Below, one piece after another: positions 2,357 to 42,483 of a stretch of DNA of 64,000 bases (its first letter is position 1; every line of letters begins with the position of its first letter). This DNA is from Eledone cirrhosa. Taxonomy: Eukaryota. Made by a program: the position numbers and the translations under genes. The notes beneath the pieces were generated by a model, which worked only from the letters and a program-made list of their open reading frames with translations, was not told the origin of the DNA and searched no databases. The stretch is taken from positions 280,612,001 to 280,676,000 of the forward strand of contig OZ024742.1 of assembly GCA_964016885.1 (NCBI GenBank), written 5' to 3'.

Positions 2357-2430
2357 AACGAAGGAAATGTGGTAAGGAACCAAATGGACCATAACGCAGC
2401 AAAGTACTCAATACTTAGGGTAGTAGAGTG

Positions 2431-2433
<3 letters not shown>
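2357..2433 (-). repeat. Isolated 3' tail of the family also at 11518, 13724 and 37079, between (TA)n tracts
   Basis: Shares gtggtaag...ccataacgca...tactc(a/g)atacttagggtagtag with those copies. Confidence 0.75.
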
Positions 2434-2494
<61 letters not shown>

Positions 2495-2497
<3 letters not shown>

Positions 2498-2712
2498 ATA
2501 ATAATAAATTTGAAGACTAAAATCCAAAGAGGGCTCTATAAGGATAAATATATATCAAATATATAAGAACCGTAGAGCAAATATTTATTAAAATAACAGA
2601 TTAAGGTTTAAGCAAAGAAAAGCTGCTTTCACCCTTAACGGGATCTTCTGAGTTTCAGAAGATCCCGTTAAGGGTGAAAGCAGCGATTCTTTGCTTAAAC
2701 TTTAATCTGTTA

Positions 2713-2719
<7 letters not shown>
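2495..2719. mobile_element. Short fold-back PLE-type end in (TA)n, with hammerhead
   Basis: Inverted arms 2587-2651 and 2655-2719 plus about 90 nt unpaired extension 2495-2586; same family at 23265, 27455, 50755. Confidence 0.8.
2651..2701 (+). ncRNA. Minimal type I hammerhead-like ribozyme, U4A core variant
   Basis: AGTTT CAGAAGA TCCC-GTTAA-GGGT GAAA GCA-9nt-TGC TT AAACT; stems I, II and III pair. Confidence 0.65.
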
Positions 2720-2809: not shown

Positions 2810-2884
2810 GTATATATATAACCAAACTTCGGACCATCATACGTGTCTGTCCCTAATTGACACTTTTCATATATATATACAATT

Positions 2885-4935
2885 AGACATAGCGAATTAC
2901 TACGCGTCAGTATCACCTGTAATAGTGAACAAGGCACTCATGAGCGCCATGGCCAAGTCCAACCTCATTAGGGAGGAGGCAAGCCCCATAATAGCAGCTA
3001 GAAAGACGCTACTTAGCTTCGAAGACAAGTTATGGGAGAGCAGGGACAGACCCGACAGTTTCGATATTACTATGGGGTCGAGCCACTCTGCGCAGGTGAC
3101 CGACCTGGTGGGGATCTATCTCCTCCAAAGATTAGCGGAGGAGATCCCAGGGGTCGGCGGAGGAATATACAGAGACGGCGCACTTTTTACTTTCAGTTCC
3201 CTAAACCCCAGCCAGATGGAGCGTATGAGGAAGCACATATCGCACATTTTTAAGCAACACGGCTTATCCGTGACAATAGATCCTAGCACTAAGACGGTGA
3301 ATTTCCCGGACGCTACCCTGGAAATGAATACGGGCATCCACCGACATTATCACAAGCTTAATGAGAACCTGCAATATGAACAGGCAATCGAACCACCCCA
3401 AGTCAGTCATCGAAGCAATAGTTAAAGGGATATCTAAATGCGTATCCACCCTGTCGGCCAACGCAGACGTGTTCAACCAGCACGCCGACTATTATAATGA
3501 GGCACTGCGCAGGGCCGATTACACAGATAGCATAGTGTACACCACAGGCAGGGAAGAGCCTAGCGCCGGGTCATGCGGATACGGCATTAGCAGGGCACTC
3601 ACATAGATAGAAGAAACGACCCGGAACTAAACCCATAGAACACGAGTAGCAGCATAGATCACCATAAGACACAGGACCGACAATAGGACAGACGAAGACA
3701 CATACGGGTGACAGACCACCCATAACACATAGTCAAGAGCCCGGCACGCGCACCACATGCGTCGGGGAAACTAGAACTAGGGACAGAGTAAGGACAAGTA
3801 CGGCTCTAGAACCCGGTAGAGGGAACACCCGGCCCGGTAGCTATGGTATAGCCCCGACAACAGCACCACTTAGCATTAACCAGTCTAACAGTACAGCCGA
3901 CAATATGGAATACCTTAGTAAGCGAAAGGCGTAACCCTGACGCCCACAGTAGACATATAGATAGAGGCAACATAGGAGACGAAATTTTGGGCGGGCAAAT
4001 CCCGAGACGGACTCCAGACCCAAAACACATTCACTGCTGCTACAAACACACAGGAAAGAACAAAACTAGATCTAAGGCCGTTACATGGGTTAACGCGCCG
4101 TATTCTAAGCATGTATGCAGCAATATACCAGGCCTCTTTCTCCGAGCGTTAAACGAGTGCTTCCCGCCGTCGAACAGATACTACAAGATTTTCAACCGCC
4201 ACACGGTGAAGTTTTCCTTCTCCACAGCGCCTAACATGGCCAACTACATGGCCATATCCAACGCGGCGAAGATGGGAAACCTCGACCGTGAACCCCGGCG
4301 GCAGAATGACCGTCCATCGGAGCACGGAGGGCCCCTCGCAGACCAGTCTTCCAACCACAACCGGCTTTCGCGGCGGCCGCCACCCCCGCGGAAGTCCATA
4401 CAATCCAACGCCGGGTGGGAATGGATGGCGGAGGAGAGACCACCCTGTCGGCGGAACAACACCCTGAGAATCGGCAGAGGACCCTAGAAGATCAAGGGCC
4501 AGGCACCCGAAATGAACAACATAACGACAGAATATGCAACTGCAGAGCGGGCACGTAGTGCCTCCTGCGGGGAAGATGCTTGACAAAGGGCCTGCTATAT
4601 AAATGTGTGGTTAGCACACACAATACAGAGCGCACAGACATCGGCGCAACAACCACGACCTTTAAATCGCGGATGTATAACCACACGATCACTTTCAAGA
4701 ACCGGAGTAAGAGGCATTCTACTAGGCTGGCAGACCTGGTGTGGGACTTGAAGGACAAAGGTACCCCGTATGCCCTTGAGTGGAGTATCTTTCGGCACGT
4801 GAATGCATACTCGGCTGGAAGCAGAAAGTGTAGACTATGCCTATAGGGGGGGCCATGGAGCTAGTCAGACTGAAGGATGGTGCGGTCAACCTGAAATCGG
4901 AAATAATCATGACGTGCAGACACCAGAGAAGGTGC
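2885..4935 (+). pseudogene. Degenerate GC-rich Penelope-like element, YRDD-type RT plus GIY-YIG
   Basis: DIANYYASVS, FDITMGSSHSAQVTDLVGIYLL, GIYRDG, SNHPKS, WVNAPYS...KIFNRHTVKFSFST, LYKC...IGATTTTFKSRMYNH...CRLCL across frameshifted ORFs 2925-3425, 3361-3606, 3987-4487, 4580-4846. Confidence 0.9.
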
Positions 4936-6423
4936 ACACTCTCTGCATGGAATCCACCGGGAAGCCCAGGCTAAAGGAATGCGGCGGAGCGTGCGCCGAC
5001 CAAGGCGGTGAAACGGGTTGAAGGGATCAGACACCATACCCTGATGACTTTATATGCCCCGTGCGGCAAACGGAAATAACCCGGGATCTATACCAGACAC
5101 TGCACGTCATCCTAGGCAAGAACATCACCTGAGCCGGGGCAGGCTGACCCAGATTCCACTGACTTTCAGTGAAATGCATTACCCCTATAGGACAATATAC
5201 CTCAACCACAGTGACATACTCCAGTATGGCCTGTCCAAGCACCCCCATCCATGTGTATCTTTTCAATAGAGAGTCCATACTCCACACGTATTCTATCTTG
5301 TAACACATATTATATGTTCTGTATATCTTATGTGTACCTCTCCTGTGCATCTCATACGCATACACTTTCCTCATTCTTCTTTTTTATATATCTCTATGTG
5401 ACGTTATATCTATACTTTTAATATATTGCACGATTATTTTATATATATGTATATACGTATGTGTATATATAGATGTATATATATATATATATATATGTGT
5501 AGATATATATGTGTGTGTATATATGTATGTCTATGGTTATATTGTTTATATATGTGCATGCTTATAACAGGATGCATCATTTCATGTATGACCCATTCTA
5601 TGACCCATTGTGTATCTTTATATGACTTTGTGTATATATCCTATTTGTGTATATATATATATATATATGTGTGTATATATCTTTGTAGGCGTGCGTGGGC
5701 CTGTATGTAAATATGCGCATATGTGTAAGAGTGTATATGAGCTAGTGTGTGTGTGTGTGTGTACAAGCACCCAATGTAGCGAAAGGGCTTGTGTTTGTGT
5801 GTGTATATATATATGTAGGTGTATATATGTGTATGTATGTATATATGTATGTGTGCGTGTATGTGTGTGTATATATATGTGTGTGTATTTGTGAGCGAGT
5901 CTGTATGTGTGCCTGTATATGGGCATGTAGGCAGGTGTCTGTGTATGCATATGTCTATGGTTTTTTTATTTGTTCTCCTTAAGTGTGTGTGTATAGCTGG
6001 AGTATATGCGTAAGGATGTTGTTATCTATGTGATTGTGCGTGTGTGTGTGTGTGTGTGCGTGTGTGTGTATATGTGTGTGTGAGAGCGCGCGTGGGCGCG
6101 TAATATACCAAACCCAGTAGTAATTCATCGAACGGTGGCAGAAAGAAAAACTGATGGTCAGTGGAATCCACACCTGTTGGTCAGATTCACGATGACGTAG
6201 AAAAGCAGCAGCCAATAACATAACAGGACGCGCGAAGAGGATGTTTTTGACGCTAACACCCCAGTGAAGTAATTTGCTCGGAAATGATTAGACGTGTCCG
6301 GCGAACCTGCAGGTCCATAATCAGACATATCAACACAATGATCGTGTCTCGAGCTGTCCGCCGGCGAAACAGTTGTAACACAACCAATAAATTGAATTCA
6401 GATGCATCATTGATTTTTCGTTT

Positions 6424-7560: not shown

Positions 7561-7963
7561 CAGCAACCCAAGCACTGATGGTGATTATCGCTAAATATTG
7601 ATGTTGATTTTATTATCAATATTAATATTATTGGGAACCCACTGAAGAATTATAAGAGCCCACTTAAATAAGTATTTGTTGATCTTATACCAGCTTCTAC
7701 ATAAATTGGTATAATTTCACCCAACTTGTAGGAATCTTATAATGAAACGAGACGTTCATCTGGGAAGAGATATATTCGATATATCTCATATGAAATAATA
7801 CAGCCAATTTTTCACACAATACAATTAGTTAGCTCCCCGAAAGTTTAATTAGGATTATACTCACTTATTTCCTAATGTTTGTTGAGTGAATTGCGATTTG
7901 GCCGGTGTATCGCTATTAGCTTTCTCCGTTGATGTATTTATATATATATATATATATATATAA

Positions 7964-8145
7964 AGGAACGATCGACTTTCGTCAAATCGGACCGAGGGAA
8001 CAAGGTTTCCGTTGGTCTTTCCAATTGCTAATACTATCTATCGGTCGCAACTCCAGGTAGAAGGAGCAACGTGAAATAAAGTGTCTTGCTCAAGGACATA
8101 ACGTATCGCCTGGTCCAGGAATCGAACTCACAACCTTACGATTGC

Positions 8146-8148
<3 letters not shown>
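7964..8148 (-). mobile_element. tRNA-derived SINE, second family
   Basis: Minus strand B box GAGTTCGATTCC followed by gtccttgagcaagacactttatttcacgttgctcc; 3' part recurs on + at 61436-61540; degenerate copy near 53575-53680 (-). Confidence 0.75.
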
Positions 8149-8219
<71 letters not shown>

Positions 8220-8244
8220 TTATTTATTTATATATATATATATA

Positions 8245-9756
8245 TTGTTATACTTGGGGAGGCTCATATTTGTGTAATATTGCCAGAATTAATAACAGAA
8301 CACACTCATTGTTTGGTTGGTTTTCGCTTCTCGCTTCTGTGTTTTTTATATCAGTAATCTAACTTACTCGGTCCTCAATGTTGCCATTGACTGACCGACG
8401 GTCAAAAATAATACAGATACAATATAGACACAAACACATATATATAGTTTATCATAAATCTTTCGTTGCACATCTGCAACATCGTCAGTGGTGTTATTGT
8501 TTCCTCCTGTTGTATTGAATATATACGCCATATTTATTCAGTCTGTCTATATATTTATTTATTTATTTGCTTGTTTGTTTATTTTATTTTGTCTTCATTG
8601 CGCATGCGTTTGCGTGTGTGTATAGTGTTTTGTTTGCTGTGTGATGGGTGACTAGTGTGTGTTTATGTGCTTGTTGTTATTGTGCTTGAGTATGTATTTA
8701 TTTATTTATTTATTTATTTTATTTTATTTACTTATTTATACTTCTCTTAGGTCAGTGTTGTTTGTTTGGGTATTGTTGTTATTCCATTCATTCTTTCTGT
8801 TTAGTCTTGGCCTTCTAATTTCTACTTCACTGGCCTCTCTGATTTGCTTATCTGCTGGGTCATTTCTATGTTTAGATATTATTCTAATTTCTATGTTGTC
8901 TATGTTAACGTCATGTTGTTGTCTAGCATGTTCGTATAGTACTGACCCGTTTTTTCCTCCTTTTAGTTCGACCCAGTGTTGGTCTCTCCTTTCACCTATG
9001 CTACGAGCTGTCTCACCTATGTATTTTGTTGTCATGTTTCTGCAAGTACCCTCTGTACATCTTATGCTATAGACTACATTTCTAGTTTTACAGTTTATCC
9101 GGGGGTTTACCTTACATATGATACATTTCCTATTAGTACAGTGGGTTTTCTTAAAAGGGTAGGTTTTGCTGATCAGGGATTTTATGGTGGTTCCTGGCTT
9201 TTCTACCACCTTAATTTTTAAGTGGGTCTTTCTCAGGGCCTTTCTACACTGGTTAGCTAATTTCCCTCCAGGGGTAGCGTCCACAAACATGACACTCTGG
9301 TATCTCTGGTTGTCGTGTACCATGAGCTGGCTTTCCCTATCTTATGTCTAGCCCTATCTAAGCTATTCCATGATTTGCTCCTGTATAATGGGCAAATTCC
9401 TTTCATGTCCAGTTCTATGAGGGTCTTATACTTCTCCATGGCTCCTTCGTATACTTTGACTCTGTCTCTTTGGTTGTAGCCAGAGAACTGCATGCGGTTG
9501 ATGAAGTGTTGGATGTGTCTTTCCATTTCTGTTGGGTCGCACATGCGGGACACATTCTTCATCACTCGTACCAAATCTGCGATCAGAATAATAAACTTAG
9601 CACTCCCGGACATTACTGAGTTTTTGAGTATCAGGTATTTGGAGGCCATGGCTTTAGCATAGTGTGAGTGGAGAATTTGGGCTCTCTCGTCTGTAGTGTT
9701 AATCAATAAACAATATTTGTTTCGACACACCATTTCATATAAAAAACCTCGCAAAA

Positions 9757-9757
<1 letters not shown>
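8245..9757 (-). mobile_element. 5'-truncated PLE (same family as 30982-33933) with only the terminal tail inverted
   Basis: ORFs 9257-9754 and 8736-9323 (frameshift near 9320) encode thumb and GIY-YIG (VVYSIRC...YIGETARS); 9709-9757 matches the + strand tail 34449-34497; (TA)n both sides. Confidence 0.95.
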
Positions 9758-9789
<32 letters not shown>

Positions 9790-9794
<5 letters not shown>

Positions 9795-10013
9795 TAGATA
9801 GATAGATAGATAGATATATTTCTTTATTAGCCACAGGGGCACAAAAGAAGGGGACAAATACAAAGGGGGAAGTTTACATACAATAAAAACGTGTAAAATG
9901 TTATCACAGATGGAATTTAAAAGTTAGTCGATTTTCCCCAATAGAGGGAGACAGTTTATATGGGTAACACATACCCCCGAAAAAAATGTGCAACCCTCAT
10001 CTCCAGGAGTACG

Positions 10014-11449: not shown

Positions 11450-11517
11450 TATTTTCTTACAAAAAACAATGTCTGAAACGCAGCAAGGCGCGGGTAATTC
11501 CGCTAGTATATATATAT

Positions 11518-11733
11518 AAGAAATAAAGTGTGGTAAGCTACCGGGTGCACCATAACGCACCAGATAACTCGATACTTAGGGTAGTAGTGTGGATAATAGG
11601 AAAAGCGTTAGGACACTGAGGGCTGAATACCGGTCGTCTCGACAGTTAGATCCAAACTATGACCTGCTGGCTTAGTTCGGATCTATCTGTCGAAACGGCC
11701 GTAGCTCGGCCGTCGGAGGCCTGACGTTTTTCC
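11518..11733. mobile_element. Old diverged fold-back insertion in (TA)n; duplicated in inverted orientation at 13724-13940
   Basis: Central hairpin tcgacagttagatccaaacta / tagttcggatctatctgtcga; arms align loosely out to ttttcc(t/g)at; about 75 nt unpaired tail. Confidence 0.7.
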
Positions 11734-11765
<32 letters not shown>

Positions 11766-11811: not shown

Positions 11812-11816
<5 letters not shown>

Positions 11817-12511
11817 AATTAGTATATCTACCAACATATATATACAGATGCATACCTATATATAGGTTTTGTCTTAGTAACTTTGTGGTTTAATGCAAGG
11901 GGATGCAGAACAATTATATGAAAGACGTAAAATAAGAAAATTATAAAAATTAACTTACTTTTTATAATTTTCTTATTTTACGTCTTTCATATAATTGTTC
12001 GGCATCCCCTTGCATTGAACCACAAACTTACTAAGACAAAACCTATATATTTGCTGGCATAGGTATGCATCTGTATATATATGTTGGTAGATATACTAAT
12101 TCTTTATAATTATCTCCAAATTATTTTGTTGAGCAAAAATTTGCCAAAACTGCTGCTATAGTTCATAGTAATAGTTCGGCTACTGTCTTCTTACACCCCA
12201 CTCCTCACTGATTAACCTCAATGTCATGTGATTGATTCTTTTGAATTTGCCACCGACCAAGTAGGCAGTGATTTTTTCAATGTCTTGGAATTTAGTCCAC
12301 ACTTGCTTTTTTCCATCCACTGAATTATTTTTGTATAAGTTCCCTGTGTCCACGCATTGCCTGGGAACTTAGCTGAGAATAGACTTCCTGATGACGAAAG
12401 GCCTTCTCCATGTTCCATTCGGAAACCATGTTTATTCCCTATCAGAAACTAATTAGTTGGAGTGAAATTTTAGTAAGTAAGTTAATTTTTATAATTTTCT
12501 TATTTTACGTC

Positions 12512-12520
<9 letters not shown>
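11812..12520. mobile_element. Fold-back insertion whose + arm is a terminally redundant unit of about 527 bp
   Basis: Palindrome 11812-12108; tttataattttcttattttacgtctttcat at 11961-11990 and 12488-12517; same family at 40916-41452. Confidence 0.85.
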
Positions 12521-12564: not shown

Positions 12565-12568
<4 letters not shown>

Positions 12569-12739
12569 ATATAGAGAAACACACAGATACATGCGGACAC
12601 ATACATATACATGAATATACCCACATCTATCCTTGAGTTAATGGTGCCAACCTTAACCGATGTTGCTCTATGAATAACTGGGACAAACCAAATATATCTG
12701 ATTATTAATTATATCTAATGTTTCTTCTCTCTTCATAAT

Positions 12740-12743
<4 letters not shown>
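12565..12743. mobile_element. Two-piece inverted insertion of the family seen colinear at 42535-42815
   Basis: 12573-12690 matches 42541-42657 in the same orientation; about 12700-12742 is the reverse complement of about 42697-42740. Confidence 0.7.
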
Positions 12744-12828: not shown

Positions 12829-13715
12829 TAAATCATGTCTTTAGAATCATCAGATAAAATATATACTATTTCTTCTTCTAATTAGCATAATTAATCATAT
12901 AAAAAAATCAATTAGATCAAGCTATAAGAAGAAAGGCTTCTACGGAGAAATCTCCGACAAATAACCGAACGTAGCCTCTTCGCGTTGGCCCCAATCGAGT
13001 ATTTATCCAACATTTCGACAGCATGTAGAAACTGACTAAATATATCATCAACCATACACAATTAGGTGTAAAATTAAACTTAGAAGAAATGCGTACATAC
13101 CGTAATTATATCTCTACCATGGTTTCATTCGTATTTAGACATCCAAATAATAGGAATGTCCTGAGTTAGGATTCATCAGGAGACAAACTCAAAATCAGAC
13201 ATCTAGTTTTTCAATCCGATCCCGCCAAAAATAGATTTAAAATGGCTAAGAATCGCTATGTGGCTGTGGTCAAGCCAGAAAGAATGTGATTGGTTGCTTA
13301 CGGCGAGTAGGCTTGCTGCTAAAAAGCGCAGCCAAATATCGCCAAATTTAATCTCAACCTATCGGGAGATTATTAAATATAAAGGTTAACATATACATAA
13401 AGTTATATATATATATATGTTGCAACTGGTCACTTTTAAGCTCTATGAAGAATTAATAAATTAAAAAATCAGAGCAATATATCATAAATCATGTCTTTAG
13501 AATCATCAGATAAAATATATACTATTTCTTCTTCTAATTAGCATAATTAACCATATAAAAAATCAATTAGATCAAGCTATAAGAAGAAAGGCTCTTATGG
13601 AGAAATCTCCGACAAATAACCGAACGTAGCCTCTTCGCGGTGGCCCCAATCGAGTATTTATCCAACATTTCGACAGCATGTAGAAACTGACTAAATATAT
13701 CATCAACCATGCACA
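12825..13715 (-). mobile_element. Non-coding 656-bp unit with about 230-bp terminal direct repeats (pLTR/retrozyme-like)
   Basis: 12825-13055 repeats at 13481-13710 near-identically; TA runs on both sides; hammerhead inside. Confidence 0.8.
13111..13183 (-). ncRNA. Type I hammerhead, canonical core, palindromic stem III
   Basis: TCTC CTGATGA [long stem II containing GACATTCC..GGATGTC] GAAA CCATGG TA GAGA. Confidence 0.7.
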
Positions 13716-13950
13716 TATATATATCGGAAAAACGTCAGGCCTCCGATGGCTGAGCTACGGCCGTTTCGACAGATAGATCCGAACTAAGCCAGCAGGGCAT
13801 AGTTCGGATCTAGCTGTCGAGACGACCGGTATTCAGCCCTCAGTGTCCTGACTCTTTTCCTATTATCCACACTACTACCCTAAGTATCGAGTTATCTGGT
13901 GCGTTATGGTCCTCCAGGTAGCTTACCACACTTTATTTCTTATATATATA

Positions 13951-14810
13951 TACTAGCGGAATTACCCGCGCCTGGCTGCGTTTCACACGTTTTTTGTAAG
14001 AAAATGATGATTGATTTTAAATCAGTAATATCATTTATGAAGAATAAATAAAGGGAAAATTTTAAAAAAGTGGAGGCATTAACTAATCATTTGTGTTGTC
14101 ATATGTGTAGTGATGTTTGCCATAGATAAAATGTCTATATTAGCCACATTTTACTATAAAAGGGAGGTGCTTTTTTTGTTGATTTACGTTCAATCAATAG
14201 AAAAATCCCCTGATAATAGAGTTTCCATTACTGAAGTTATGGGCTTCCAAAATGTTTACTATAGAGAGTTTAACCTTCATTAGGGTGTCTTAATATTATT
14301 TAAATTTGCTGAAATGTTGTGAATAGGCATCATATCTTGTCATTTACCTATCGAAGGGAAAACATTTTCAGCGGGGTTTGCGCCCCCGGAGAACCCTTTG
14401 ATTATAACGAAATAAGGTACTCTGCTATTTTACTATAAAAGAGAGGTGCTTTTTTTGATTATTTACGTTTAATTAAAAGAAAAGCCCGGTGGTAATAGAG
14501 GTTCTAATACTCAAGATATGGGTTTCCAAAATGTTCACTATAGGTGATGTAACCCCATTACGATGTCTTAATATTATTTAAAGTTGCTGAAATTTTGTGA
14601 ATAGGCATCATGTCTTATCATTTACCTATGGTCTAAATTTCATATAAATCGGAGGGAAACAATTTTCAGCAGAGGTCTGTGCCCGCGCAGGCCCCCGGGA
14701 ACCCTTTGATTAAAATTTACTTTTCCAAGTACCTTGGGCAATGTAGTTTCAGAATATATATGGTTATGGGGTCTATCTCCAAAAGGATAGGAGGAGTTCG
14801 TGAACAAACG
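13951..14810 (-). mobile_element. Non-autonomous Helitron/Helentron-like element with about 280-bp internal tandem duplication
   Basis: Terminus GCGCGGGTAATTCCG-CTAGT on the minus strand; repeats 14148-14403 and 14427-14712; same terminus on + at 11470-11507. Confidence 0.5.
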
Positions 14811-21443: not shown

Positions 21444-21736
21444 GATCATTGTAATCGTGTGTTTCAGTGGTTCGTGTGATCGCTTAACGGTCTTATAGAT
21501 GTGATTTCTAATTTCGGAGGTACAATTTTTCCAGGCTCCGCTGCTGCTAGAAAATAGGCTATACAGGTTATTCACAGTGTGTTGGACTGAATCACCATGA
21601 CAAATATGTTATGCGTTTATGTATCTGTGCAACGTTTAACCACTTAACTATAATGCAAAATGTTCTATATAAAATATAAAGATCCAGAGTGTCACACATT
21701 GGGTCCCACAGAATTTCTCTTATTATTAGATAAAGA

Positions 21737-21930
21737 GCGGTGGGCTGGCAGTATCGATAGAGGGTCGTACGCCATGCTTTGCAGCATGGAGTTGTGGTCC
21801 TCTACGTTCTGAGTTCAAATCCCGCCGATGTTAACTTAGCCTTTCATTCTTACGGGTCGACAAAATAAAGCACGAGTAATGCAGTGGGGTAATTGCTGGC
21901 CTTGTGCTAAAAGGAGAAACACTTATTACA
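21737..21930 (+). mobile_element. tRNA-derived SINE (octopod-type)
   Basis: A box-like TGGCAGTATCGATAG, B box GAGTTCAAATCC, conserved body gcctttcat.cttacggg(g)tcga.aaaataaag, end ggccttgtgc..aa..agaaac. Confidence 0.85.
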
Positions 21931-22905: not shown

Positions 22906-23334
22906 TAGAATTTTAGTCTACGACTTCAGTTATTCCATTTACCTGGTTTTGTCTTTGCGTGCAATTGTTCTCCACGCTCCACATATGATGTATTATCTTC
23001 GTTTTTTCCGTTCATTGCCAGAGAACGTCTCTATGAACCACCTAATAGAATATTAGTCTACGATTTTTTTAATACTATAAACGTGGTTTTGTCATTTTTG
23101 AGTGTATTTGTTTTTCACCGCTCCAAATAATGACGTATTATATTTGTTTTTTCCAGTTATTTGGCAGGGAACGTTTCCACGAACCAAAGTATCGTCTTTT
23201 TGTCTTCCTCCGGTTGCAACGTTTTTTGAAATATTTACTTCTGCGTTTACAGATTGACTTTGTTAGTTTCAGAAGATGCCGTTAAGTGTGAAAGCAGCCA
23301 TTCTTTGCTTAAACTTTAATCTGTTATTTTATAA

Positions 23335-23335
<1 letters not shown>
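22906..23335 (+). mobile_element. PLE-type 3' region with about 140-bp tandem repeat and CAGAAGA hammerhead variant (23265-23315)
   Basis: Repeats 22906-23040 and 23046-23186; AGTTT CAGAAGA..GAAA GCA..TGC TT AAACT; upstream flank shared with 50707-50760. Confidence 0.65.
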
Positions 23336-23367
<32 letters not shown>

Positions 23368-25844: not shown

Positions 25845-26330
25845 CAGAACGAGACGTACGGATACAAATGTTCCATTTAATCTAGCAACACGTACAGTTA
25901 TCTCAAATAATGAAGCTCGGAATAAAAGCTTCCAAGAACTAAAATATATTCTACTCGAAAGAGAGTATCCATCATTGTTTATACACAATGAAGGGCGGTA
26001 GATGATCAATATCGGTTGAGGGTCAGACGCCATGCTTTCCAGCATAGAGTTATGTCTCTATACGATGTGAGTTCAAATCCCGCGGATGTTAACTTTGCCT
26101 TTCATCTTTACGGAATCGATAATTGCTGGCCTTGTGCCAATAGTAGAAACAATTACTAATATACAATGACATTCAGGTATTATGAAAAACAATAACAGTT
26201 TCAGATACATCCAATACTTTATTCTATATCTCAAAACTGAATTCAAGAAATACAGAGGCATACAACATAATCGACAAAACCTAAGAATTGAGACAAAATC
26301 TAAGAATGAAAATAGCACTTGAAACCTAAG
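25845..26330 (+). pseudogene. Old PLE relic of a third lineage (thumb region) interrupted by a SINE at about 25993-26155
   Basis: [40 protein letters not shown] resembles PLE post-RT IPFxLAxR...L...YP segments; SINE B box at 26069. Confidence 0.55.
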
Positions 26331-26827
26331 TTAATCAAAAACAAAACACGACAAATTTTTTTTAAACAACTACTCACCAGCGCCAAATTACAACACCAAC
26401 ACTCAAAAAGTATGGTCGCCATAAGCTAAATGAGGACAAACATTTTTTTTGTAAAAAATCATTTCATTTGTTAAAAAATAACCTCCCCGAAAAAATCCTG
26501 ATATATGCCTTTAACTATAAAGAGTGTAACGACGATTATAAATGGTAAAAAAACATTACCCCATTGAACGCAAAGAATTGTGATACCCGACCACGATACA
26601 ATTACCACTTAGTGAGTATTTAGATTTCTGTGCAACGAACAAATGATCCCTAAATTCCAGGTTGTTACCTAATATCATTGTCCACATTATGCCACAAATC
26701 AAACACTGATAAATAAATAAAATATATTTATTCAAGGATACAAACGGCATCTGAATAGACTCTAACTTTTTTCCGCCACATTCACCTTGCTAATAGAATT
26801 ATTATCATTATTATTGCTATTGTATAG

Positions 26828-27005
26828 AGGGCGGTGAATTGGCATTATCGGCAAAGGGTTGGACGCCATGCTTTCTAGCATAGTTACGTCCCTTTACAGT
26901 CTGAGTTCAAATCTCGCCGAGGTTAACTTTGTCTTTCATCCTTACGCGGTCGATAAAATAAAGTAGGTAATTGCTGACCTTGTGTCTAAAGTAGAAACAA
27001 TTATT
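26828..27005 (+). mobile_element. tRNA-derived SINE (same family as 21737)
   Basis: ggcggtgaattggca...GAGTTCAAATC...ctttcatccttacgcggtcgataaaataaagta...gtagaaacaattatta. Confidence 0.85.
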
Positions 27006-27404
27006 ATTGCTATTGTCGTTGCTATTATTATTAGGTTACACCATGGCACTCAGTAGCTTTGACACAATGGCATACATTGTTATTGCTAGCAGGCACACAC
27101 ACGTACACACACGTGCACACACACACACACACAAGCACACACAGAGATACACACACATACGGAACATACAGGAATAAATAAAAGAGAATATATATATTCA
27201 AATTAAAATAAATATATATGTGTCGCACAGGCTACGTTTTGAATTATAACAGCCCATCCCACATACGCGCACACACACACACTTATAAAACTACGGTGAA
27301 AGATGATCTTAAAGATGACATTATGCAGGAAGCAAAGGGAATACTATTGGGGTTGAGCTGTAGGAGTATCCTTTAGATGGCACCTGTAACAGATGTATAG
27401 AAGA

Positions 27405-27454: not shown

Positions 27455-27458
<4 letters not shown>

Positions 27459-27612
27459 TAAAATAACAGATTAAAGTTTGAGCAAAGAATCGCTACTTTC
27501 ACCCTTAACGGGATCTTCTGAAACTCTTTGATCTACGGTTCTCATATATTTGATGTTTATTTGTCCTTATCGAGCCCTCTTTGGATTTTAGTCTTCAAAT
27601 TTATTATTATTA
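27455..27612. mobile_element. Inverted two-piece insertion of the CAGAAGA-hammerhead family (hammerhead 27475-27525 -)
   Basis: Minus piece 27455-27525 ends at ttttaataaata; plus piece 27528-27612 is the tail that follows that site in the 2495 copy. Confidence 0.8.
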
Positions 27613-27635
27613 CTATATATATATATATATATATA

Positions 27636-28798: not shown

Positions 28799-28852
<54 letters not shown>

Positions 28853-29367
28853 ATATTTGGGGAGGGTCATATTTGCGTAATATTGCCAGAATTAATAACA
28901 GAACACACTCACTGTTTGGTTGGTTTTCGCTTCTCGCTGTCTTTTATATATATATATCTGCGATCTAACTTACTCGGTCCTCAAAGTTGCCATTGACTGA
29001 CCGGCGGTCAAAAATAATACAGATACAATATAGACAAACACATATATATATAGTTTACATAAATCTTTCGTTGCACATCTGCAACATCGTCAGTGGTGTT
29101 ATATTCATTGCTCCTCCTGTTGTGTTGTATGTCTACGCCATTTTTTTTTGTTCAGTCTGTCTATATATTTATTTATTTATTTGCTTGTTTGTTTATCTTA
29201 TTTTATTTTGTCTTCTTTGCGCATGCGTTTGCGTGTGTGTATAGTGTTATGTGTGATGTGTGACTAGTGTGTATAGTGTTGTGTCTGCTGGGTGACTAGT
29301 GTGTGTTTATGTGCTTGTGTATGTATTTATTTATCTTATTTTATTTTAATTTAATTTACTTATTTAT

Positions 29368-30951
29368 TTATACTTCTCTTAGGTCAGTGTTGTTTGTTTG
29401 GGTGTTGTTGTTGTTCCACTCATTCTTTCTGTTTAGCTTTGGTCTTCTAATTTCTATTTCACTGGCCTCTCTGATTTGCCTATCTGCTGGGTCATTCCTA
29501 TGTTTAGATATTATTCTAATTTCTATGTTGTCTATGTTACCGTCATGATGTTGTCTAGCATGTTCGTATAGTACTGACCCGTTTTTTCGTCCTTTTAGTT
29601 CCCCCCAGTGTTGGTCTATCCTTTCACCTATGCTACGAGCTGTCTCACCTATGTATGTTGTTGTCGTGTTTCTGCAAGTACCCTCTGTACATCTTATGCT
29701 ATAGACTATGTTTCTAGTTTTACAGTTTATCCGGGGGTTCACCTTACATATGATACATTTCCTATTGGTACAGTGGGTTTTCTTAAAAGGGTAGGTTTTG
29801 CTGATCAGGGATTTTATGGTGGTTCCTGGCTTTTCTACCACCTTTATTTTTAAGTGGGTCTTTCTCAGGGCCTTTCTACACTGGTTAGCTAATTTCCCTC
29901 CAGGGGTGGCGTCCACAAACATGACACTCTGATATCTCTGGTTGTCGTACCATGATGTGGCCTTCCCTATCTTATGTCTAGCCCTATCTAAGCTATTCCA
30001 TGATTTGCTCCTGTATAGTGGGCAAATTCCTTTCATGTCCAGTTCTATGAGGGTCTTATACTTTTCCATGGCTCCTTCGTATACTCTGACTCTGTCTCTT
30101 TGGTTGTAGCCAGAGAACTGCATGCGGTTGATGAAGTGTTGGATGTGTCCTTCCATTTCTGTTGGGTCGCACATGCTGGACACATTCTTCATCACTCGTA
30201 CCAAATCTGCGATCAGAATATTAAACTTAGCACTACTGGACATTGCTGAGTTTTTGAGTATCAGGTATTTGGAGGCCATGGGTTTAGCATAGTGTGAGTG
30301 GAGAATTTGGGCTCTCTCGTCTATAGTGTTAATCCAGAGTTCTGTGTCTAATACAGGTAGTCTATTGTTAGGGTGTTTGGAAGGGAAGTCTATAGTTACA
30401 GTTATACTCTGGTGTATGGAATTAGCTATCTGCTGGATGCTTTCCATCGTGCTACGTTCTAAATCAAACTTGTTAGTGCTCTCTAGTGGGGGTGTTCTTA
30501 TAACTATATTGATATCGTCTACATAACGAGAGTACATGATGAGGTCTATGGAGCTTTCATTAAGGAGATCTTTAAGTCTCCTTTCCCACCATACCATGAA
30601 AAGGTTGGCAACATCGCCAGCTATGCTGACGCCGATGGCTGCTCCCTCATTTTGGGTGTAGATTTTCTCATTGAACTTAAATATGTGGCCCTTTAGGGTA
30701 GTTTTGATACTAGCCCCTATTGCATGTGCGACCATTTTTCTTACCTGATCAGTGTTTTGGGGGGTCCGTATAGCTTTGGTCCACCCAATCCACCTTCCTA
30801 TGGGAGTCTTTTTAGCCATTGAGGTTATGGTGGGGGGTCTACCTCTTATAGGTCTACTAGGGCAGAAACATCTAAGGTCATGGCTGTCTAGGTAGTCAGT
30901 GTCGTAGGTAAGTCTAAGTAGGAGGCCCAGTTCGTCTGTGTCGACGTCGCA
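29368..30951 (-). CDS. Inverted 5'-truncated duplicate of the PLE ORF (RT core to GIY-YIG)
   Basis: Protein identical to the 983-aa ORF from FCDVDTDEL to the stop. Confidence 0.9.
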   Translation of the reverse strand, partial: CDVDTDELGLLLRLTYDTDYLDSHDLRCFCPSRPIRGRPPTITSMAKKTPIGRWIGWTKAIRTPQNTDQVRKMVAHAIGASIKTTLKGHIFKFNEKIYTQNEGAAIGVSIAGDVANLFMVWWERRLKDLLNESSIDLIMYSRYVDDINIVIRTPPLESTNKFDLERSTMESIQQIANSIHQSITVTIDFPSKHPNNRLPVLDTELWINTIDERAQILHSHYAKPMASKYLILKNSAMSSSAKFNILIADLVRVMKNVSSMCDPTEMEGHIQHFINRMQFSGYNQRDRVRVYEGAMEKYKTLIELDMKGICPLYRSKSWNSLDRARHKIGKATSWYDNQRYQSVMFVDATPGGKLANQCRKALRKTHLKIKVVEKPGTTIKSLISKTYPFKKTHCTNRKCIICKVNPRINCKTRNIVYSIRCTEGTCRNTTTTYIGETARSIGERIDQHWGELKGRKNGSVLYEHARQHHDGNIDNIEIRIISKHRNDPADRQIREASEIEIRRPKLNRKNEWNNNNTQTNNTDLREV

Positions 30952-30981
30952 AAATTTGCCATCTACAAAAAGATTAATCCT

Positions 30982-33933
30982 ATGGAATGCAAAACGGAGC
31001 TGGAAAAGTGTTTCACAAAAATACGTTGGAATGCAAAGGTAAACAACAACAACAATAATAACGGTAGTAGTAATATAAACAATAACTCTGGGTATAGAAA
31101 TAACAGCCATAACCATAACAATGGCAGGAAAGTGAGAAATAGTGATAATGGTAATAATACTAGCGATAGACAGAACAACAACAACCACAATAATAATAAT
31201 AATAGAAACGTTAACCACAGACACAGCAACAGTGACCACAGTAGTAATAACGGTAACAATACGAACAACAACAACAACAATAACCACAGTGGTAATAATG
31301 GAAATAGTACATGTAGCAACATCAACAAAAACAAGAAACATAATAATAGTAACAACCACAATGGTAGAAATAGCAGTAACAACAACAACAATAACGGTGA
31401 AGTAAACAACAATACATCTAGCAATCATAACAATAGTAATATTAATGCTAAGGATAGAAACAACAACAACCACCATGATAACAATAATAGCAACACACAC
31501 AACTATGACGATAGAAATAACGACAACCCCTTAGAGAAACTATTTTTCAACCCAGCTGACAAAACATATAAGATGGGTAATATCTATCCTACGAGGTTAC
31601 CCTTTAATAAAAGAGTTTGCATACCACAACAAATAGATGACGAGACGGAGGCACAGTTCACCATAGCTAGAAATAAGATTAGACAAGTAGTAGACAGGTA
31701 CACTATGAGACAGAGCAGACCAGAGGCCCAACAACTTGGGATAAAACCTGTAGAAGGCTTGGTTAGCCTCAAGCAGCGCACAAGGGATGGTGAGGTAGTG
31801 TGTCTACCCACAGATAAGTCTGGTAGGATGTCAATAGATAGCATGCCGAACTACATCGAGGCAATGCAACCCCACATCACCAACACGAGCGAAGTTGCAC
31901 AACTAACACACGATGGGAGAGAAAAAATCCTCAACGCTCACATGATGATGTGGACTGACATCCTAAAGCCAAGCAGACGCACTGCCAACAACTTCCAGGC
32001 GTCTAACAATGGCATACCACCCTTGTATGGGCTCCGCAAAGACCACAAGACAGTCGACGACCCGACAATAGGACCACCAACAAGACCTGTATGCGGAGCT
32101 AATATAGCTAGCAACTACAGGATCTCCTACTTCCTCTCAATGGTTATGCGCCCCATAATCAAGATGTCCCCAGATGTATGTGAAAGTACAGAGGAACTCC
32201 TCAGCAGAATCAGTGAGTGCAACAAAAACAGGAGCCTATCCAACTGCATAATAGGCAGCATGGATGTGGTGTCACTGTACCCATCCATTAACATTGATTT
32301 TGCTGTGAAAAGATGTGTGGAGATGATCATTGAGAGTGAGGTGGAGTTCTGCGACGTCGACACAGACGAACTGGGCCTCCTACTTAGACTTACCTACGAC
32401 ACTGACTACCTAGACAGCCATGACCTTAGATGTTTCTGCCCTAGTAGACCTATAAGAGGTAGACCCCCCACCATAACCTCAATGGCTAAAAAGACTCCCA
32501 TAGGAAGGTGGATTGGGTGGACCAAAGCTATACGGACCCCCCAAAACACTGATCAGGTAAGAAAAATGGTCGCACATGCAATAGGGGCTAGTATCAAAAC
32601 TACCCTAAAGGGCCACATATTTAAGTTCAATGAGAAAATCTACACCCAAAATGAGGGAGCAGCCATCGGCGTCAGCATAGCTGGCGATGTTGCCAACCTT
32701 TTCATGGTATGGTGGGAAAGGAGACTTAAAGATCTCCTTAATGAAAGCTCCATAGACCTCATCATGTACTCTCGTTATGTAGACGATATCAATATAGTTA
32801 TAAGAACACCCCCACTAGAGAGCACTAACAAGTTTGATTTAGAACGTAGCACGATGGAAAGCATCCAGCAGATAGCTAATTCCATACACCAGAGTATAAC
32901 TGTAACTATAGACTTCCCTTCCAAACACCCTAACAATAGACTACCTGTATTAGACACAGAACTCTGGATTAACACTATAGACGAGAGAGCCCAAATTCTC
33001 CACTCACACTATGCTAAACCCATGGCCTCCAAATACCTGATACTCAAAAACTCAGCAATGTCCAGTAGTGCTAAGTTTAATATTCTGATCGCAGATTTGG
33101 TACGAGTGATGAAGAATGTGTCCAGCATGTGCGACCCAACAGAAATGGAAGGACACATCCAACACTTCATCAACCGCATGCAGTTCTCTGGCTACAACCA
33201 AAGAGACAGAGTCAGAGTATACGAAGGAGCCATGGAAAAGTATAAGACCCTCATAGAACTGGACATGAAAGGAATTTGCCCACTATACAGGAGCAAATCA
33301 TGGAATAGCTTAGATAGGGCTAGACATAAGATAGGGAAGGCCACATCATGGTACGACAACCAGAGATATCAGAGTGTCATGTTTGTGGACGCCACCCCTG
33401 GAGGGAAATTAGCTAACCAGTGTAGAAAGGCCCTGAGAAAGACCCACTTAAAAATAAAGGTGGTAGAAAAGCCAGGAACCACCATAAAATCCCTGATCAG
33501 CAAAACCTACCCTTTTAAGAAAACCCACTGTACCAATAGGAAATGTATCATATGTAAGGTGAACCCCCGGATAAACTGTAAAACTAGAAACATAGTCTAT
33601 AGCATAAGATGTACAGAGGGTACTTGCAGAAACACGACAACAACATACATAGGTGAGACAGCTCGTAGCATAGGTGAAAGGATAGACCAACACTGGGGGG
33701 AACTAAAAGGACGAAAAAACGGGTCAGTACTATACGAACATGCTAGACAACATCATGACGGTAACATAGACAACATAGAAATTAGAATAATATCTAAACA
33801 TAGGAATGACCCAGCAGATAGGCAAATCAGAGAGGCCAGTGAAATAGAAATTAGAAGACCAAAGCTAAACAGAAAGAATGAGTGGAACAACAACAACACC
33901 CAAACAAACAACACTGACCTAAGAGAAGTATAA
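30982..33933 (+). CDS. PLE polyprotein: Asn-rich N-terminal insert, reverse transcriptase, C-terminal GIY-YIG endonuclease; probably N-truncated at the inversion junction
   Basis: 983 aa uninterrupted: TDKSG, LYGLRKDHK, PTRPV, DVVSLYPSI, QNEGAAIG, RYVDD, LPVLD, CxxxxCxxC, IVYSIRC..YIGETARS..R..H; frame stays open upstream to the junction (KFAIYKKINP). Confidence 0.95.
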   Translation: MECKTELEKCFTKIRWNAKVNNNNNNNGSSNINNNSGYRNNSHNHNNGRKVRNSDNGNNTSDRQNNNNHNNNNNRNVNHRHSNSDHSSNNGNNTNNNNNNNHSGNNGNSTCSNINKNKKHNNSNNHNGRNSSNNNNNNGEVNNNTSSNHNNSNINAKDRNNNNHHDNNNSNTHNYDDRNNDNPLEKLFFNPADKTYKMGNIYPTRLPFNKRVCIPQQIDDETEAQFTIARNKIRQVVDRYTMRQSRPEAQQLGIKPVEGLVSLKQRTRDGEVVCLPTDKSGRMSIDSMPNYIEAMQPHITNTSEVAQLTHDGREKILNAHMMMWTDILKPSRRTANNFQASNNGIPPLYGLRKDHKTVDDPTIGPPTRPVCGANIASNYRISYFLSMVMRPIIKMSPDVCESTEELLSRISECNKNRSLSNCIIGSMDVVSLYPSINIDFAVKRCVEMIIESEVEFCDVDTDELGLLLRLTYDTDYLDSHDLRCFCPSRPIRGRPPTITSMAKKTPIGRWIGWTKAIRTPQNTDQVRKMVAHAIGASIKTTLKGHIFKFNEKIYTQNEGAAIGVSIAGDVANLFMVWWERRLKDLLNESSIDLIMYSRYVDDINIVIRTPPLESTNKFDLERSTMESIQQIANSIHQSITVTIDFPSKHPNNRLPVLDTELWINTIDERAQILHSHYAKPMASKYLILKNSAMSSSAKFNILIADLVRVMKNVSSMCDPTEMEGHIQHFINRMQFSGYNQRDRVRVYEGAMEKYKTLIELDMKGICPLYRSKSWNSLDRARHKIGKATSWYDNQRYQSVMFVDATPGGKLANQCRKALRKTHLKIKVVEKPGTTIKSLISKTYPFKKTHCTNRKCIICKVNPRINCKTRNIVYSIRCTEGTCRNTTTTYIGETARSIGERIDQHWGELKGRKNGSVLYEHARQHHDGNIDNIEIRIISKHRNDPADRQIREASEIEIRRPKLNRKNEWNNNNTQTNNTDLREV

Positions 33934-34494
33934 ATAAATAAGTAAATTAAATTAAAATAAAATAAGATAAATAAATACATACACAAGCACATAAACACAC
34001 ACTAGTCACCCAGCAGACACAACACTATACACACTAGTCACACATCACACATAACACTATACACACACGCAAACGCATGCGCAAAGAAGACAAAATAAAA
34101 TAAGATAAACAAACAAGCAAATAAATAAATAAATATATAGACAGACTGAACAAAAAAAAATGGCGTAGACATACAACACAACAGGAGGAGCAATGAATAT
34201 AACACCACTGACGATGTTGCAGATGTGCAACGAAAGATTTATGTAAACTATATATATATGTGTTTGTCTATATTGTATCTGTATTATTTTTGACCGCCGG
34301 TCAGTCAATGGCAACATTGAGGACCGAGTAAGTTAGATCGCAGATATATATATATAAAAGACAGCGAGAAGCGAAAACCAACCAAACAGTGAGTGTGTTC
34401 TGTTATTAATTCTGGCAATATTACGCAAATATGACCCTCCCCAAATATAACAATATCTGTTTCGACACACGATTTCATATAAAAAACCTCGCAA

Positions 34495-34530
<36 letters not shown>

Positions 34531-37078: not shown

Positions 37079-37200
37079 AACGGAGGAAATGTAGTAAGGC
37101 ACCAGATGGACCATCACGCACCAAAGTACTCAATACTTAGGGTAGTAGAGTGGGTAATAGGAACAAGTATGACTCCGACAGCAGAGATACCTGTTCCTAT
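37079..37200. mobile_element. Very short fold-back of the 11518 family
   Basis: Tail on minus, then ataggaacaagtat ... atacctgttcctat inverted pair, then (TA)n. Confidence 0.7.
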
Positions 37201-37924: not shown

Positions 37925-38015
37925 AATATATTAGTTTATTATTAATTCTGGCAATATTACACAAATATGACCCTACCCAAGTATATATATACATATTTAT
38001 ATATATTTATATTTT

Positions 38016-38060
<45 letters not shown>

Positions 38061-38066
<6 letters not shown>

Positions 38067-40562
38067 TCAGGTTATCAATAATGTAGTGATAATATATCGT
38101 TACGTTAGAGATGAACAGCGTACGTGCAGGTTTGCTCAACGAGTATAAATTATATTCCGGAGAAATGTAGAAAGGATGAATATAAAATGAAAGTGCTTTT
38201 GTTAAAAAAGGAATTTATTAGGTATTGACATATGTTTCTGTAACAGACCGAATACCTATGTATCGCTGCTTGCGTAATCATATAATGTTAGCAAGTATTC
38301 GATAGCAAATGTATAATCAGTTGTCACTTCTTCAGAGATTTTGGATAAACTGGATAAAATCAGAAAAATTGAAGTATTTATATTAGTAAAAGAGGAAGGA
38401 ACAGAGGGGATAGAATATGACAGATGGTAAAATAATTTACTGCTAAACAAGTATATAATGGGTTTTTAATGAGAATACCATGAGTAAATCTAAATAAGAA
38501 TTTTGGGGGTGCCGATTTTAATCTCTACTTGACCAACTGGACAGTGGACAGGGCTGGTCATTTGGTGCAGTAGTATTAATCATAAAGTGTCAATTGGGGA
38601 AGGGGGAGATTTCGATTGCTACTAAATAACATCAATGCTAGTGGTCAGCTGGTATTTGCTCTAGGGAATTGAATCAAAAAATCAGAAATCTCATTTTATC
38701 TATAGCAGTTTGTATTAAAAGGTAAATAATAGAAGAGTTGATAGAATTAAGACTAATAAAGAATGTTCATATCTATTTTGACAATCAAACGGGGATAGAG
38801 ACAGGCGTTCAATCCTGGTAGTATTTATAATATGAAAATGTAGATTTTAAGCGATGGTTACAGTATAACGATCGCTCTATTCTGTTATTTAATAAAATGT
38901 TTTTGGATTTCATAATACAAAATAATTCTACATTACATAATCTACAAAATTCCTGTCCATTGGAATATGGGGGGGGCAGTCGCTATTATATCCCATTTTA
39001 GGTGAAATTGTTGGTTATTTTCACGCAGCTGCCAAGCCTTGTCTGCGAGTGTTATTACATAACGCTGGTTTTCATGTTTTATCGAATAACGATGTCTATA
39101 AAGGCGTGATTTAAAGGAGGTGGCTGTAGATCCCACATAGTACCACTTCTGTCTATCCGATTCGATAGTACATTTGTATACGATGTTGCGTTCAAGACAC
39201 TGGTTGTTCAACGGACACATTCCTGGTTGGACACAGTTGCAATTACAATTTTGCGTTGTTGTATTGCCATGGATGGGTTGATGAGGTTGCTTATGTAGCA
39301 CAGGATGTTGTTTGTTGTTTTGTGATGTTATAGCTAATGTTTTACGTGTATTGTACAACCCGGTCTATAACAAATCTATTAAAACCAATCTACCCTCAAA
39401 ATTCTTTCGATTAGTTAGAAAACACTTTCCAACATCACATAAATATAATAAAATCTTAAACCCTAACACCATCCGACTTTCATATTCAACCGCCCCTAAT
39501 ATTGAACAACATATAAAAATGCTTAACGCAAAACGGTTGTATAAACGCCTTCCAACACATAACAATACACGTAAAACATTAGCTATAAGTGGTACTATGT
39601 GGGATCTACAGCCACCTCCTTTAAATCACGCCTTTATAGACATCGTTATTCGATAAAACATGAAAACCAGCGTTATGTAACAACACTCGCAGACAAGGCT
39701 TGGCAGCTGCGTGAAAATAACCAACAATTTCACCTAAAATGGGATATAATAGCGACTGCCCCCCCCATATTCCAATGGACAGGAATTTTGTAGATTATGT
39801 AATGTAGAATTATTTTGTATTATGAAATCCAAAAACATTTTATTAAATAACAGAATAGAGCGATCGTTATACTGTAACCATCGCTTAAAATCTACATTTT
39901 CATATTATAAATACTACCAGGATTGAACGCCTGTCTCTATCCCCGTTTGATTGTCAAAATAGATATGAACATTCTTTATTAGTCTTAATTCTATCAACTC
40001 TTCTATTATTTACCTTTTAATACAAACTGCTATAGATAAAATGAGATTTCTGATTTTTTGATTCAATTCCCTAGAGCAAATACCAGCTGACCACTAGCAT
40101 TGATGTTATTTAGTAGCAATCGAAATCTCCCCCTTCCCCAATTGACACTTTATGATTAATACTACTGCACCAAATGACCAGCCCTGTCCACTGTCCAGTT
40201 GGTCAAGTAGAGATTAAAATCGGCACCCCCAAAATTCTTATTTAGATTTACTCATGGTATTCTCATTAAAAACCCATTATATACTTGTTTAGCAGTAAAT
40301 TATTTTACCATCTGTCATATTCTATCCCCTCTGTTCCTTCCTCTTTTACTAATATAAATACTTCAATTTTTCTGATTTTATCCAGTTTATCCAAAATCTC
40401 TGAAGAAGTGACAACTGATTATACATTTGCTATCGAATACTTGCTAACATTATATGATTACGCAAGCAGCGATACATAGGTATTCGGTCTGTTACAGAAA
40501 CATATGTCAATACCTAATAAATTCCTTTTTTAACAAAAGCACTTTCATTTTATATTCATCCT

Positions 40563-40567
<5 letters not shown>
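38061..40567. mobile_element. 2.5-kb fold-back PLE (YRDD lineage, GIY-YIG region plus 3' UTR) in (TA)n
   Basis: 38168-39147 mirrors 39588-40567; CNC..CPL..CLERNIVYKC..YYVGSTATSFKSRLYRH; about 107-nt tail 38061-38167; junction TTGTACAA 39351-39358; related to 59540-60871. Confidence 0.93.
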
Positions 40568-40610
<43 letters not shown>

Positions 40611-41733: not shown

Positions 41734-41788
<55 letters not shown>

Positions 41789-41884
41789 AAAATATAAATA
41801 TATATAAATATGTATATATATACTTGGGGAGGGCCGTATTTGTGTAATATTGCCAGAATTAATAATAAACTAATTCATCGCCGC

Positions 41885-42046: not shown

Positions 42047-42483
42047 CGTATATATATATGCGTATTTGTATATACATATAAATATATATGCATATATAAA
42101 GGTGTATATATCTATATATGTATGTATATGTAAGTTTATATGTATGTATGTATGTATGATTGTATGTATGCATCTGAGCGTGTGTACGTATGTATGTATG
42201 CATGTGTGTATGTATGAAAGTATTTATCCAATCATCTATGGACGAGTAATGAAAGTTATGTATAAGAACATATAAACATAGTTAGTTTTAGGTTGTAAAG
42301 CCATTAGAATAAAGTGTAGCAGGTGAAAATTTAATTGAAGACATGCTCTGTATGTCTGCTGATGTATTTTCATTGCAACCTCTTATCTAATGTAGGTATA
42401 TCTATGTTATTATCTTATATATGTATATATATATGTGTATATGTATGTAATTATATATGTATGTATATATATATATATGTGTG

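Follow-up and report, generated by a model that had tools for sequence, protein, structure and literature searches.

The 64,000-nt stretch of Eledone cirrhosa DNA analyzed here (the window) is AT-rich animal DNA with many (TA)n runs. At positions 8245-9759, within one such TA repeat, lies a truncated, dead insertion of a Penelope-like retrotransposon (PLE). Two positions of the element recur throughout: X, base 34456 of the long copy in the window that served as reference, and T, at 34497-34499, where the tail ends. The features of the insertion are as follows.

8148..8244: left side of the (TA)n target, including a short TTTA stretch (read from the sequence)
8245..9704, minus strand: X-ended arm, reverse complement of reference 32967-34456 (ORF C-terminus and 3' pLTR), 5'-truncated at 9704
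8461..8488, minus strand: hammerhead-ribozyme core motif (CTGACGA-stem-GAAA), by pattern, with no Rfam match
8743..9704, minus strand: remnant of the ORF C-terminus, disrupted by a 2-nt insertion (frameshift)
9705..9708: 4-nt filler AATA at the inversion junction
9709..9759, plus strand: T-ended arm, consisting of a 51-nt tail only and reading NNICFDTPFHIKNLAKL
9715..9733, plus strand: candidate weak bulged hairpin beginning at X, without covariation support
9760..9792: right side of the (TA)n target

The reference copy comprises the following.

28845..30954, minus strand: X-ended arm, mirroring 32347-34456; the two arms show 2 differences over 2110 nt
30955..34499, plus strand: T-ended arm, running through X (34456) to T (34497-34499)
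30922..33933, plus strand: open frame of 1003 aa with an N-rich stretch, RT, a CX4CX2C linker and, at the C terminus, an endonuclease of GIY-YIG type; 5'-truncated
34208..34235, plus strand: hammerhead core motif in the pLTR, by pattern
34431..34499, plus strand: likely first 23 codons of the ORF, MTLPKYNNICFDTRFHIKNLAKL, with X at codon 9 (frame reading)

BLAST against the long copy placed both arms of the insertion. Positions 9704 to 8242 correspond to 32967-34456 on the minus strand, and 9705-9757 to 34444-34497 on the plus strand, in agreement with the initial annotation, which had claimed a 1.46-kb minus-strand piece ending at X and a plus-strand piece made of the tail only. The first arm, 8245-9704, is the last 1.49 kb of the element up to X, reverse-complemented, and meets (AT)n at X; it carries 76 substitutions in 1457 bases aligned to reference 32967-34456, a divergence of 5.2%. 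The second, 9709-9759, is identical to reference 34449-34499 at 49 of 51 positions and meets (TA)n at T. At the inversion junction (9704/9709) the sequence reads GTGTTAATC, then AATA, then AACAATAT; microhomology is absent at this 4-nt filler. The arms overlap cleanly by 8 nt, or by 13 nt if one gap is allowed, and to within this overlap the locus is, as had been proposed, an inversion without duplication. The final 4 nt of the 8-nt overlap (ATAT) could be target-derived.

The X arm contains 1.45 kb that is absent from the T arm, and the T arm contains the tail, which is absent from the X arm. A simple snap-back of the cDNA cannot make this shape, as was claimed at the outset, since the inverted arm holds sequence that the other arm does not. 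Fold-back would need a later deletion at this locus, because a copied arm must lie within the span of the arm it was copied from. The tail pattern occurs four times in the 64-kb window, where 0.01 occurrences are expected, and a search found it at no locus in viral_contigs and at none in metagenome_contigs.

The best protein match of the element is a predicted Octopus vulgaris protein with 68% identity. The 1003-aa frame contains the motifs DKS, DVVSLY and YVDD, followed by IVYSIRC..C..YIGET and HARQHH (a pattern reading against the description in the available text of PMC8557442), and a CCHH motif in its C-terminal endonuclease region. Its Pfam RVT_1 match (E 2e-4) is below the cut-off, and the Pfam search returned no GIY-YIG match. 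A linker of the CX2-5CxxC form between RT and EN is present (CTNRKCIIC at residue 870); CxCX5C, the linker of the Hydra clade, is absent from the frame and CCHH is present, which places the element outside the Hydra definition. Judged by these motifs and by the definitions in the available part of PMC8557442, the element is an EN+ PLE of predicted Neptune or Nematis type, not Hydra. Inversion of a truncated copy together with a one-sided tail, a trait of EN+ PLEs, is likewise seen in the window element. None of the named PLE reference proteins was among the 120 matches listed for the element protein. The open frame also includes an asparagine-rich stretch of ~170 codons (30990-31530), which resembles the N-rich inserts of rotifer Penelope elements (PMC3846280, in the part available).

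The core pattern CTGACGA-stem-GAAA was found at 34208, 29066 and 8461, and had 16 matches where 2.1 are expected by chance. It is a candidate core of a hammerhead ribozyme. An Rfam scan gave 143 matches, all below the gathering score and none of them to a hammerhead. Relatives of the element's C-terminal protein were absent from viral_contigs. Nine metagenome loci of relatives were without usable insertion ends, and a long inverted element arm occurred in 0 of the 7 scanned for repeats. Three metagenome relatives (L001:1-3441, L002:1-6055 and L007:1-3920; 29-50% identity) have terminal direct repeats of 123, at least 300 and ~130 nt, respectively, which may be pLTRs or assembly overlaps.

The window contains further repeats. 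By eye, the degraded stretch 2821-5040 resembles a second PLE ORF with RT and GIY-YIG-like motifs, and a hammerhead pattern lies at 5041-5076. A short interspersed repeat, 93% identical over 109 nt, is found at 7963-8147 and 61430-61538 and adjoins the left TA run; it resembles, we presume, a cephalopod SINE. An RT fragment of another non-LTR type lies on the minus strand at 1-800, beside (GATA)n; 9818-9898 repeats an 83-nt stretch found at 827-909; and a unit of ~175 nt is present in dispersed and tandem copies (47983-48173, 55118-55654, 56428-56538, 21724-21928 and 25992-27006). Inverted duplicates facing a central TA run with nested insertions were seen at 11451-11744 and 13715-14005, at 37930-38019 and 41785-41874, and at 42369-42480 and 42911-43019. 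Their layout is the opposite of the usual one, and they are possibly inverted copies of flanking DNA made during insertion.

Other units of the window, belonging to other families, are also split or carry tails.

27455..27526, minus strand: family B, inverted arm ending at X, oriented by means of a hammerhead-like fold
27527..27613, plus strand: family B, 87-nt arm of tail only, whose first base directly follows X
2495..2717, minus strand: family B palindrome (3-nt loop at 2652-2654) with tail, defining X for B
2358..2432, minus strand: family D lone 75-nt tail between (TA)n runs, without inverted arm, its inner border ~2 nt or less from X
37080..37197, minus strand: family D short palindrome with an 80-nt tail, defining X for D together with 11519-11746
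12568..12742: family C, a pair of oppositely oriented pieces; relative to the colinear copy 42533-42814, 40 nt are missing between them

A second split unit had been claimed at 27455-27612; we confirmed it as 27455-27613, with zero overlap when compared with 2495-2717. The inner end of this unit is the same base as the center of the 2495 palindrome, so it may be a deletion product. For a third, claimed at 12565-12743, the opposite pieces without duplication hold up (they match 42533-42657 on the plus strand and 42748-42697 on the minus strand), but a gap of 40 nt separates them and X is defined by that one copy. Family C was left out of the count at X since its X is not independently defined; the layout at 12568-12742 is compatible with a split at X and does not test it. 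In 7 of 17 palindrome cores the center is a near-perfect stem whose loop is no longer than 9 nt, while other cores have long spacers, for example 1392 nt at 28849.

Several of these units have features of their own. The hammerhead-like fold of family B (50727-50822, 2589-2717 and 23215-23337) has the core CAGAAGA instead of CTGANGA; two family B arms end at the 5' edge of the proximal stem, and there are two variants of X 4 nt apart. In the family E unit at 11814-12515 the longer arm includes a partial tandem and continues beyond the end of the tail (from 12105), which gives template sequence downstream of T. A young palindrome of another family lies at 38062-40570; it is 99.9% identical over 979 nt, has a 108-nt tail and contains a jump of 180 nt in one arm near its center.

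Raw reads were used to examine X and T across the family. Three raw RAD runs, carrying the same species label as the best-matching dataset (82% of words), and one contig set were aligned to 34398-34499; runs with a small word share (X3-X6) were left out. All read figures count reads, not loci, and come from a single study with restriction-site bias. In the three runs, 968 of 4965, 953 of 5050 and 954 of 4650 reads stop at 34456 (X) and continue as (AT)n, and the claim that X is a fixed internal site is borne out by these numbers. Another 367, 450 and 379 reads stop at 34497 (T) and continue as (TA)n. Thus, both X and T are fixed family-wide in the raw reads.

The two sites are paired within insertions. 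We counted 15 inverted units with (TA)n on both sides, of which 14 are independent (13723-13940 is not independent of 11519-11746). All 14 consist of one flush arm and one arm 34-108 nt longer, and none is symmetric; if the ends were chosen freely, 14 lopsided units out of 14 would have a probability of 6e-5. Offsets in arm length are alike within a family (39/40, 102/106, 77/80 and 58/45). Units 10217, 45445 and 50374, which do not have clean TA on both sides, were excluded from the 14; all three are also uneven. The lopsided shape itself is the PLE tail, already described in the available text of PMC8557442 and PMC3846280. The homology of X to an (AT)n primer is limited to ATAT, whereas tracts of 11 and 13 nt are found 100-210 nt upstream. 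Because only ATAT pairs and longer AT tracts are available upstream, the choice of X is likely made by protein or RNA structure rather than, as in L1, by annealing.

Alleles were also compared between the arms. Both arms of the reference copy carry the identical minority allele at 10 of 10 tested sites that differ from the read majority, while the 8245 copy has the majority allele at nine of these sites and a gap at one. This sharing is as expected if each insertion derives from one template lineage, though fold-back or gene conversion would give the same result.

The tail corresponds to codons 9-23 of the presumed ORF start. The copy at 23546 keeps the tail frame, with 6 silent and 4 replacement changes (two copies compared), and by eye three homologue N-termini have a similar (F/Y)xTR stretch; a search with the N-terminal peptide was weak (best E 0.76 among 121 proteins). 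PMC3846280 (available part) describes a pLTR and tail that likewise extend over the first 22 codons. From this frame reading, the tail likely encodes the N-terminus of the ORF, and T is hence probably internal and not the end of the RNA. The second primer, which had been called terminal, would then be internal as well. The template is likely a tandem read-through RNA in which X and T are both internal, as in PMC11167929 (as far as its available text goes). For the 8245/reference family, the sequence after T is not in the window. A folding signal at X is absent (z -0.12 and 0.10); a bulged stem of 6 pairs at X is 92% paired in 4 copies, with no compensatory changes.

If the tail arm ended where a complex occupied X, the inner borders of tail arms could be expected to cluster there. 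In the reads, the borders spread over X-34 to X+10. Depth is gained at 42-48 reads per nt across 34438-34458, 50-59 across 34422-34434, 48-67 across 34462-34466 and 12-16 across 34410-34422. About a quarter of the tail depth is gained across 34438-34458, and the gain at X is not above that on either side (34422-34434 and 34462-34466); a sharp pile-up is absent. Among the matches listed, the largest group of loose ends that is not an artefact lies before 34446 in all three runs (338, 378 and 388 reads); its consensus gave 0 matches when placed and is treated as mixed. Loose ends before 34451 (175 reads, run X16) and 34458 (212 reads, run X15) match antisense body sequence at 33006-33031 and 33873-33890, and these reads are two apparent further tail-only junctions. 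Because of common variants at 34445 and 34457, clipping is displaced to 34446 and 34458, and further loose ends come from related subfamilies.

Opposite-strand joints gave no signal at X: among the matches listed, 0 of 9 lay there, and their 3'-most partners were at 34242-34379 in seven cases and at 33012 and 33070 in the other two. In the window, where lone tails are under-detected, the tail arm begins no more than 10 nt from X in 3 of ~20 units; a rough length null predicts 1.85 (P = 0.28). Under the same rough null, two units lie within 2 nt (P = 0.07). From the first bin of the element to the last, depth increases 37-fold, which indicates that very short cDNAs are frequent; short tail arms are common. 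Even clustering at X could not by itself separate priming from deletion, because X is the stem base of a palindrome, where stalling and deletion are expected (PMC4134008, available text).

Two other piles of loose ends were seen. The one at 34408 (812, 586 and 508 reads) was rejected as a restriction-site artefact: it sits on AATT, and more than 1180 molecules per run end there. We take this AATT to be the cut site of the restriction enzyme behind the read pile. At 34247, adjoining an AT tract, 12737 loose ends with an agreement of 0.39 are unexplained.

Herein, we describe how the 8245 insertion could have formed. We think it probable that both cut DNA strands primed RT on one RNA, at X and at T ~43 bases further on. 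The element's endonuclease would cut both strands of (TA)n, and the template would be a tandem read-through RNA in which X and T fall within the initial codons of the following ORF copy. One DNA end would prime at X, from which 1.46 kb would have been copied in the 8245 case, and the other would prime at T, from which the 51-nt tail alone would have been copied. The two cDNA ends would then be joined head to head by end joining, which may have left the 4-nt filler without microhomology. To our knowledge, PLE RTs lack RNase H. If the T-primed enzyme continued past X by strand displacement, overlapping arms would result, and a perfect palindrome would be the product if the two enzymes both reached the 5' end of the same RNA and ran off it. 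The least certain step is the stop of the T copy, which may have been caused by the second complex sitting at X or may be an ordinary early truncation; we hold the former to be possible but rather doubtful.

Two primers on one RNA are favored because they yield this shape in a single step, account for the pairing of X with T and make use of the two start sites known in vitro. Twin priming as first proposed for this locus is supported in part. Hairpin centers, present in 7 of the 17 cores and most simply made by fold-back, speak against two-site priming. Also against it, the available text of PMC11167929 reports no difference in start site between the strands in vitro, whereas the X/T pairing here is strict.

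Those hairpin centers (7/17) are one argument for fold-back with later deletion. Here, primed cDNA or self-primed antisense RNA would copy itself to X, the endonuclease or the 4-nt ATAT pairing would fix X to the target, and palindromes would later lose most of one arm by deletions ending at the stem base, which is X. The junction at 27455 matches the 2495 structure without the overlapping arm of the latter, and removal of an entire hairpin would leave a lone tail such as that at 2358-2432. The base of a hairpin makes polymerases stall and slip (PMC4134008), asymmetric deletions are frequent at inverted junctions (PMC8701086), and self-priming is the published proposal (PMC3846280), with the tail ascribed to endonuclease resolution (PMC8557442), all in the parts of these papers available. 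The 8245 junction, however, has filler and no direct repeat, unlike slippage, and many other cores have long spacers such as that at 28849. Moreover, two events would be needed for each tail-only copy, yet such junctions recur in reads, and RT initiation at an X-type site was seen directly in vitro for another PLE (PMC11167929, available text). We regard fold-back with later deletion, including its account of how X is fixed and where deletions end, as unlikely.

The two DNA ends might instead have primed on two RNAs, held in an asymmetric dimer with one side set on X and the other on T; the tail-only arm would then be the short end of ordinary 5' truncation. The 37-fold depth rise with its many very short cDNAs and the spread of tail-arm borders fit this account, and for L1, too, twin and dual priming could not be distinguished (PMC2837659, available text). 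A weak point in its favor is that the 8245 tail arm, in the one-gap reading, starts with a 34445 allele absent from its own X arm. It would, however, need a separate reason for the 14 X/T pairs in 14 units; the arms of the reference copy share all 10 minority alleles, and perfect palindrome centers would rarely arise from two independent RNAs. Priming on two RNAs is, in our judgment, quite unlikely. Finally, one arm of a long palindrome could have been lost when the assembler collapsed it. Assemblies are known to have difficulty with complex PLE insertions (PMC8557442, available text), and the junction within 8245-9759 is known from the assembly alone. Still, palindromes whose arms measure 2110 and 991 nt, at 99-100% identity, are present in the same window, tail-only junctions occur in raw reads of other samples, and the junction carries a 4-nt filler, all of which make an artefact highly improbable.

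The element type, the tail and the two start sites are already known. Published EN+ PLEs (PMC8557442 and PMC3846280, in the parts available) share with the window element a single ORF with RT and C-terminal GIY-YIG-type domains, a hammerhead motif in the pLTR (a candidate in the window element), a head-to-head inverted arm, a tail on one arm that overlaps the first ORF codons, and (TA)n targets; their inverted copy is 5'-truncated and the one-sided tail measures 30-40 bp. Hairpin centers are taken in PMC3846280 as a sign of self-priming. These accounts differ from ours in that they attribute the inversion to self-priming and the tail to resolution by the endonuclease, and their available text does not describe copies with a non-overlapping tail arm. 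The protein of Poseidon_Ac (PAc), a predicted dimer, cuts and extends both strands in vitro, on an AT-rich target as here, and RT starts at two internal, tail-bounding sites within the 5' end of the ORF (PMC11167929, available text). Poseidon_Ac belongs to the Penelope/Poseidon clade, without the linker Zn finger present in the window element, and that study, as far as available, does not tie the two sites to the two ends of an insertion or to inverted arms.

The likeness to twin or dual priming of L1 (PMC2837659, available part) is that each of the two target strands supplies a primer, that the 5' part is inverted head to head, and that the junctions show a deletion or little overlap. Little or no overlap was likewise found in the window (8 nt at 8245, 0 at 27455 and a 40-nt gap at 12568), whereas most other units overlap by at least 25 nt. 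In L1 the first primer is on the poly(A) tail and the second at a variable internal place; here, both are internal, fixed and ~43 nt apart, and in place of variable annealing the site is constant at 34456 with ATAT homology alone. Furthermore, many PLE copies here overlap by tens to thousands of bases, so strand displacement or another step is needed, and both flanks are (TA)n, in which target-site duplications are unreadable. Our literature search, to which subscription papers including older Penelope work were external, found no paper linking the two start sites to both ends of one PLE insertion and none proposing twin priming for PLEs.

The 8245 copy is a dead fossil, and its value is as a case for which fold-back alone does not account. 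Strict X/T pairing and non-overlapping arms tie the two start sites to the two ends of one insertion. This bears on a wider question, since PLE RTs are the closest relatives of telomerase and the PLE insertion cycle is unsolved (PMC11167929 and PMC3846280, available text). We tentatively suggest, at somewhat less than even confidence, that EN+ PLEs may integrate by programmed twin priming, in which a dimer with one RNA would set the cut strands on two fixed sites bounding the tail. If so, the downstream enzyme would either halt at the upstream one, leaving a tail-only arm, or displace it, leaving a palindrome. The tail, the head-to-head inversion and the joining of the second strand would then share a single mechanism, which would replace antisense self-priming.
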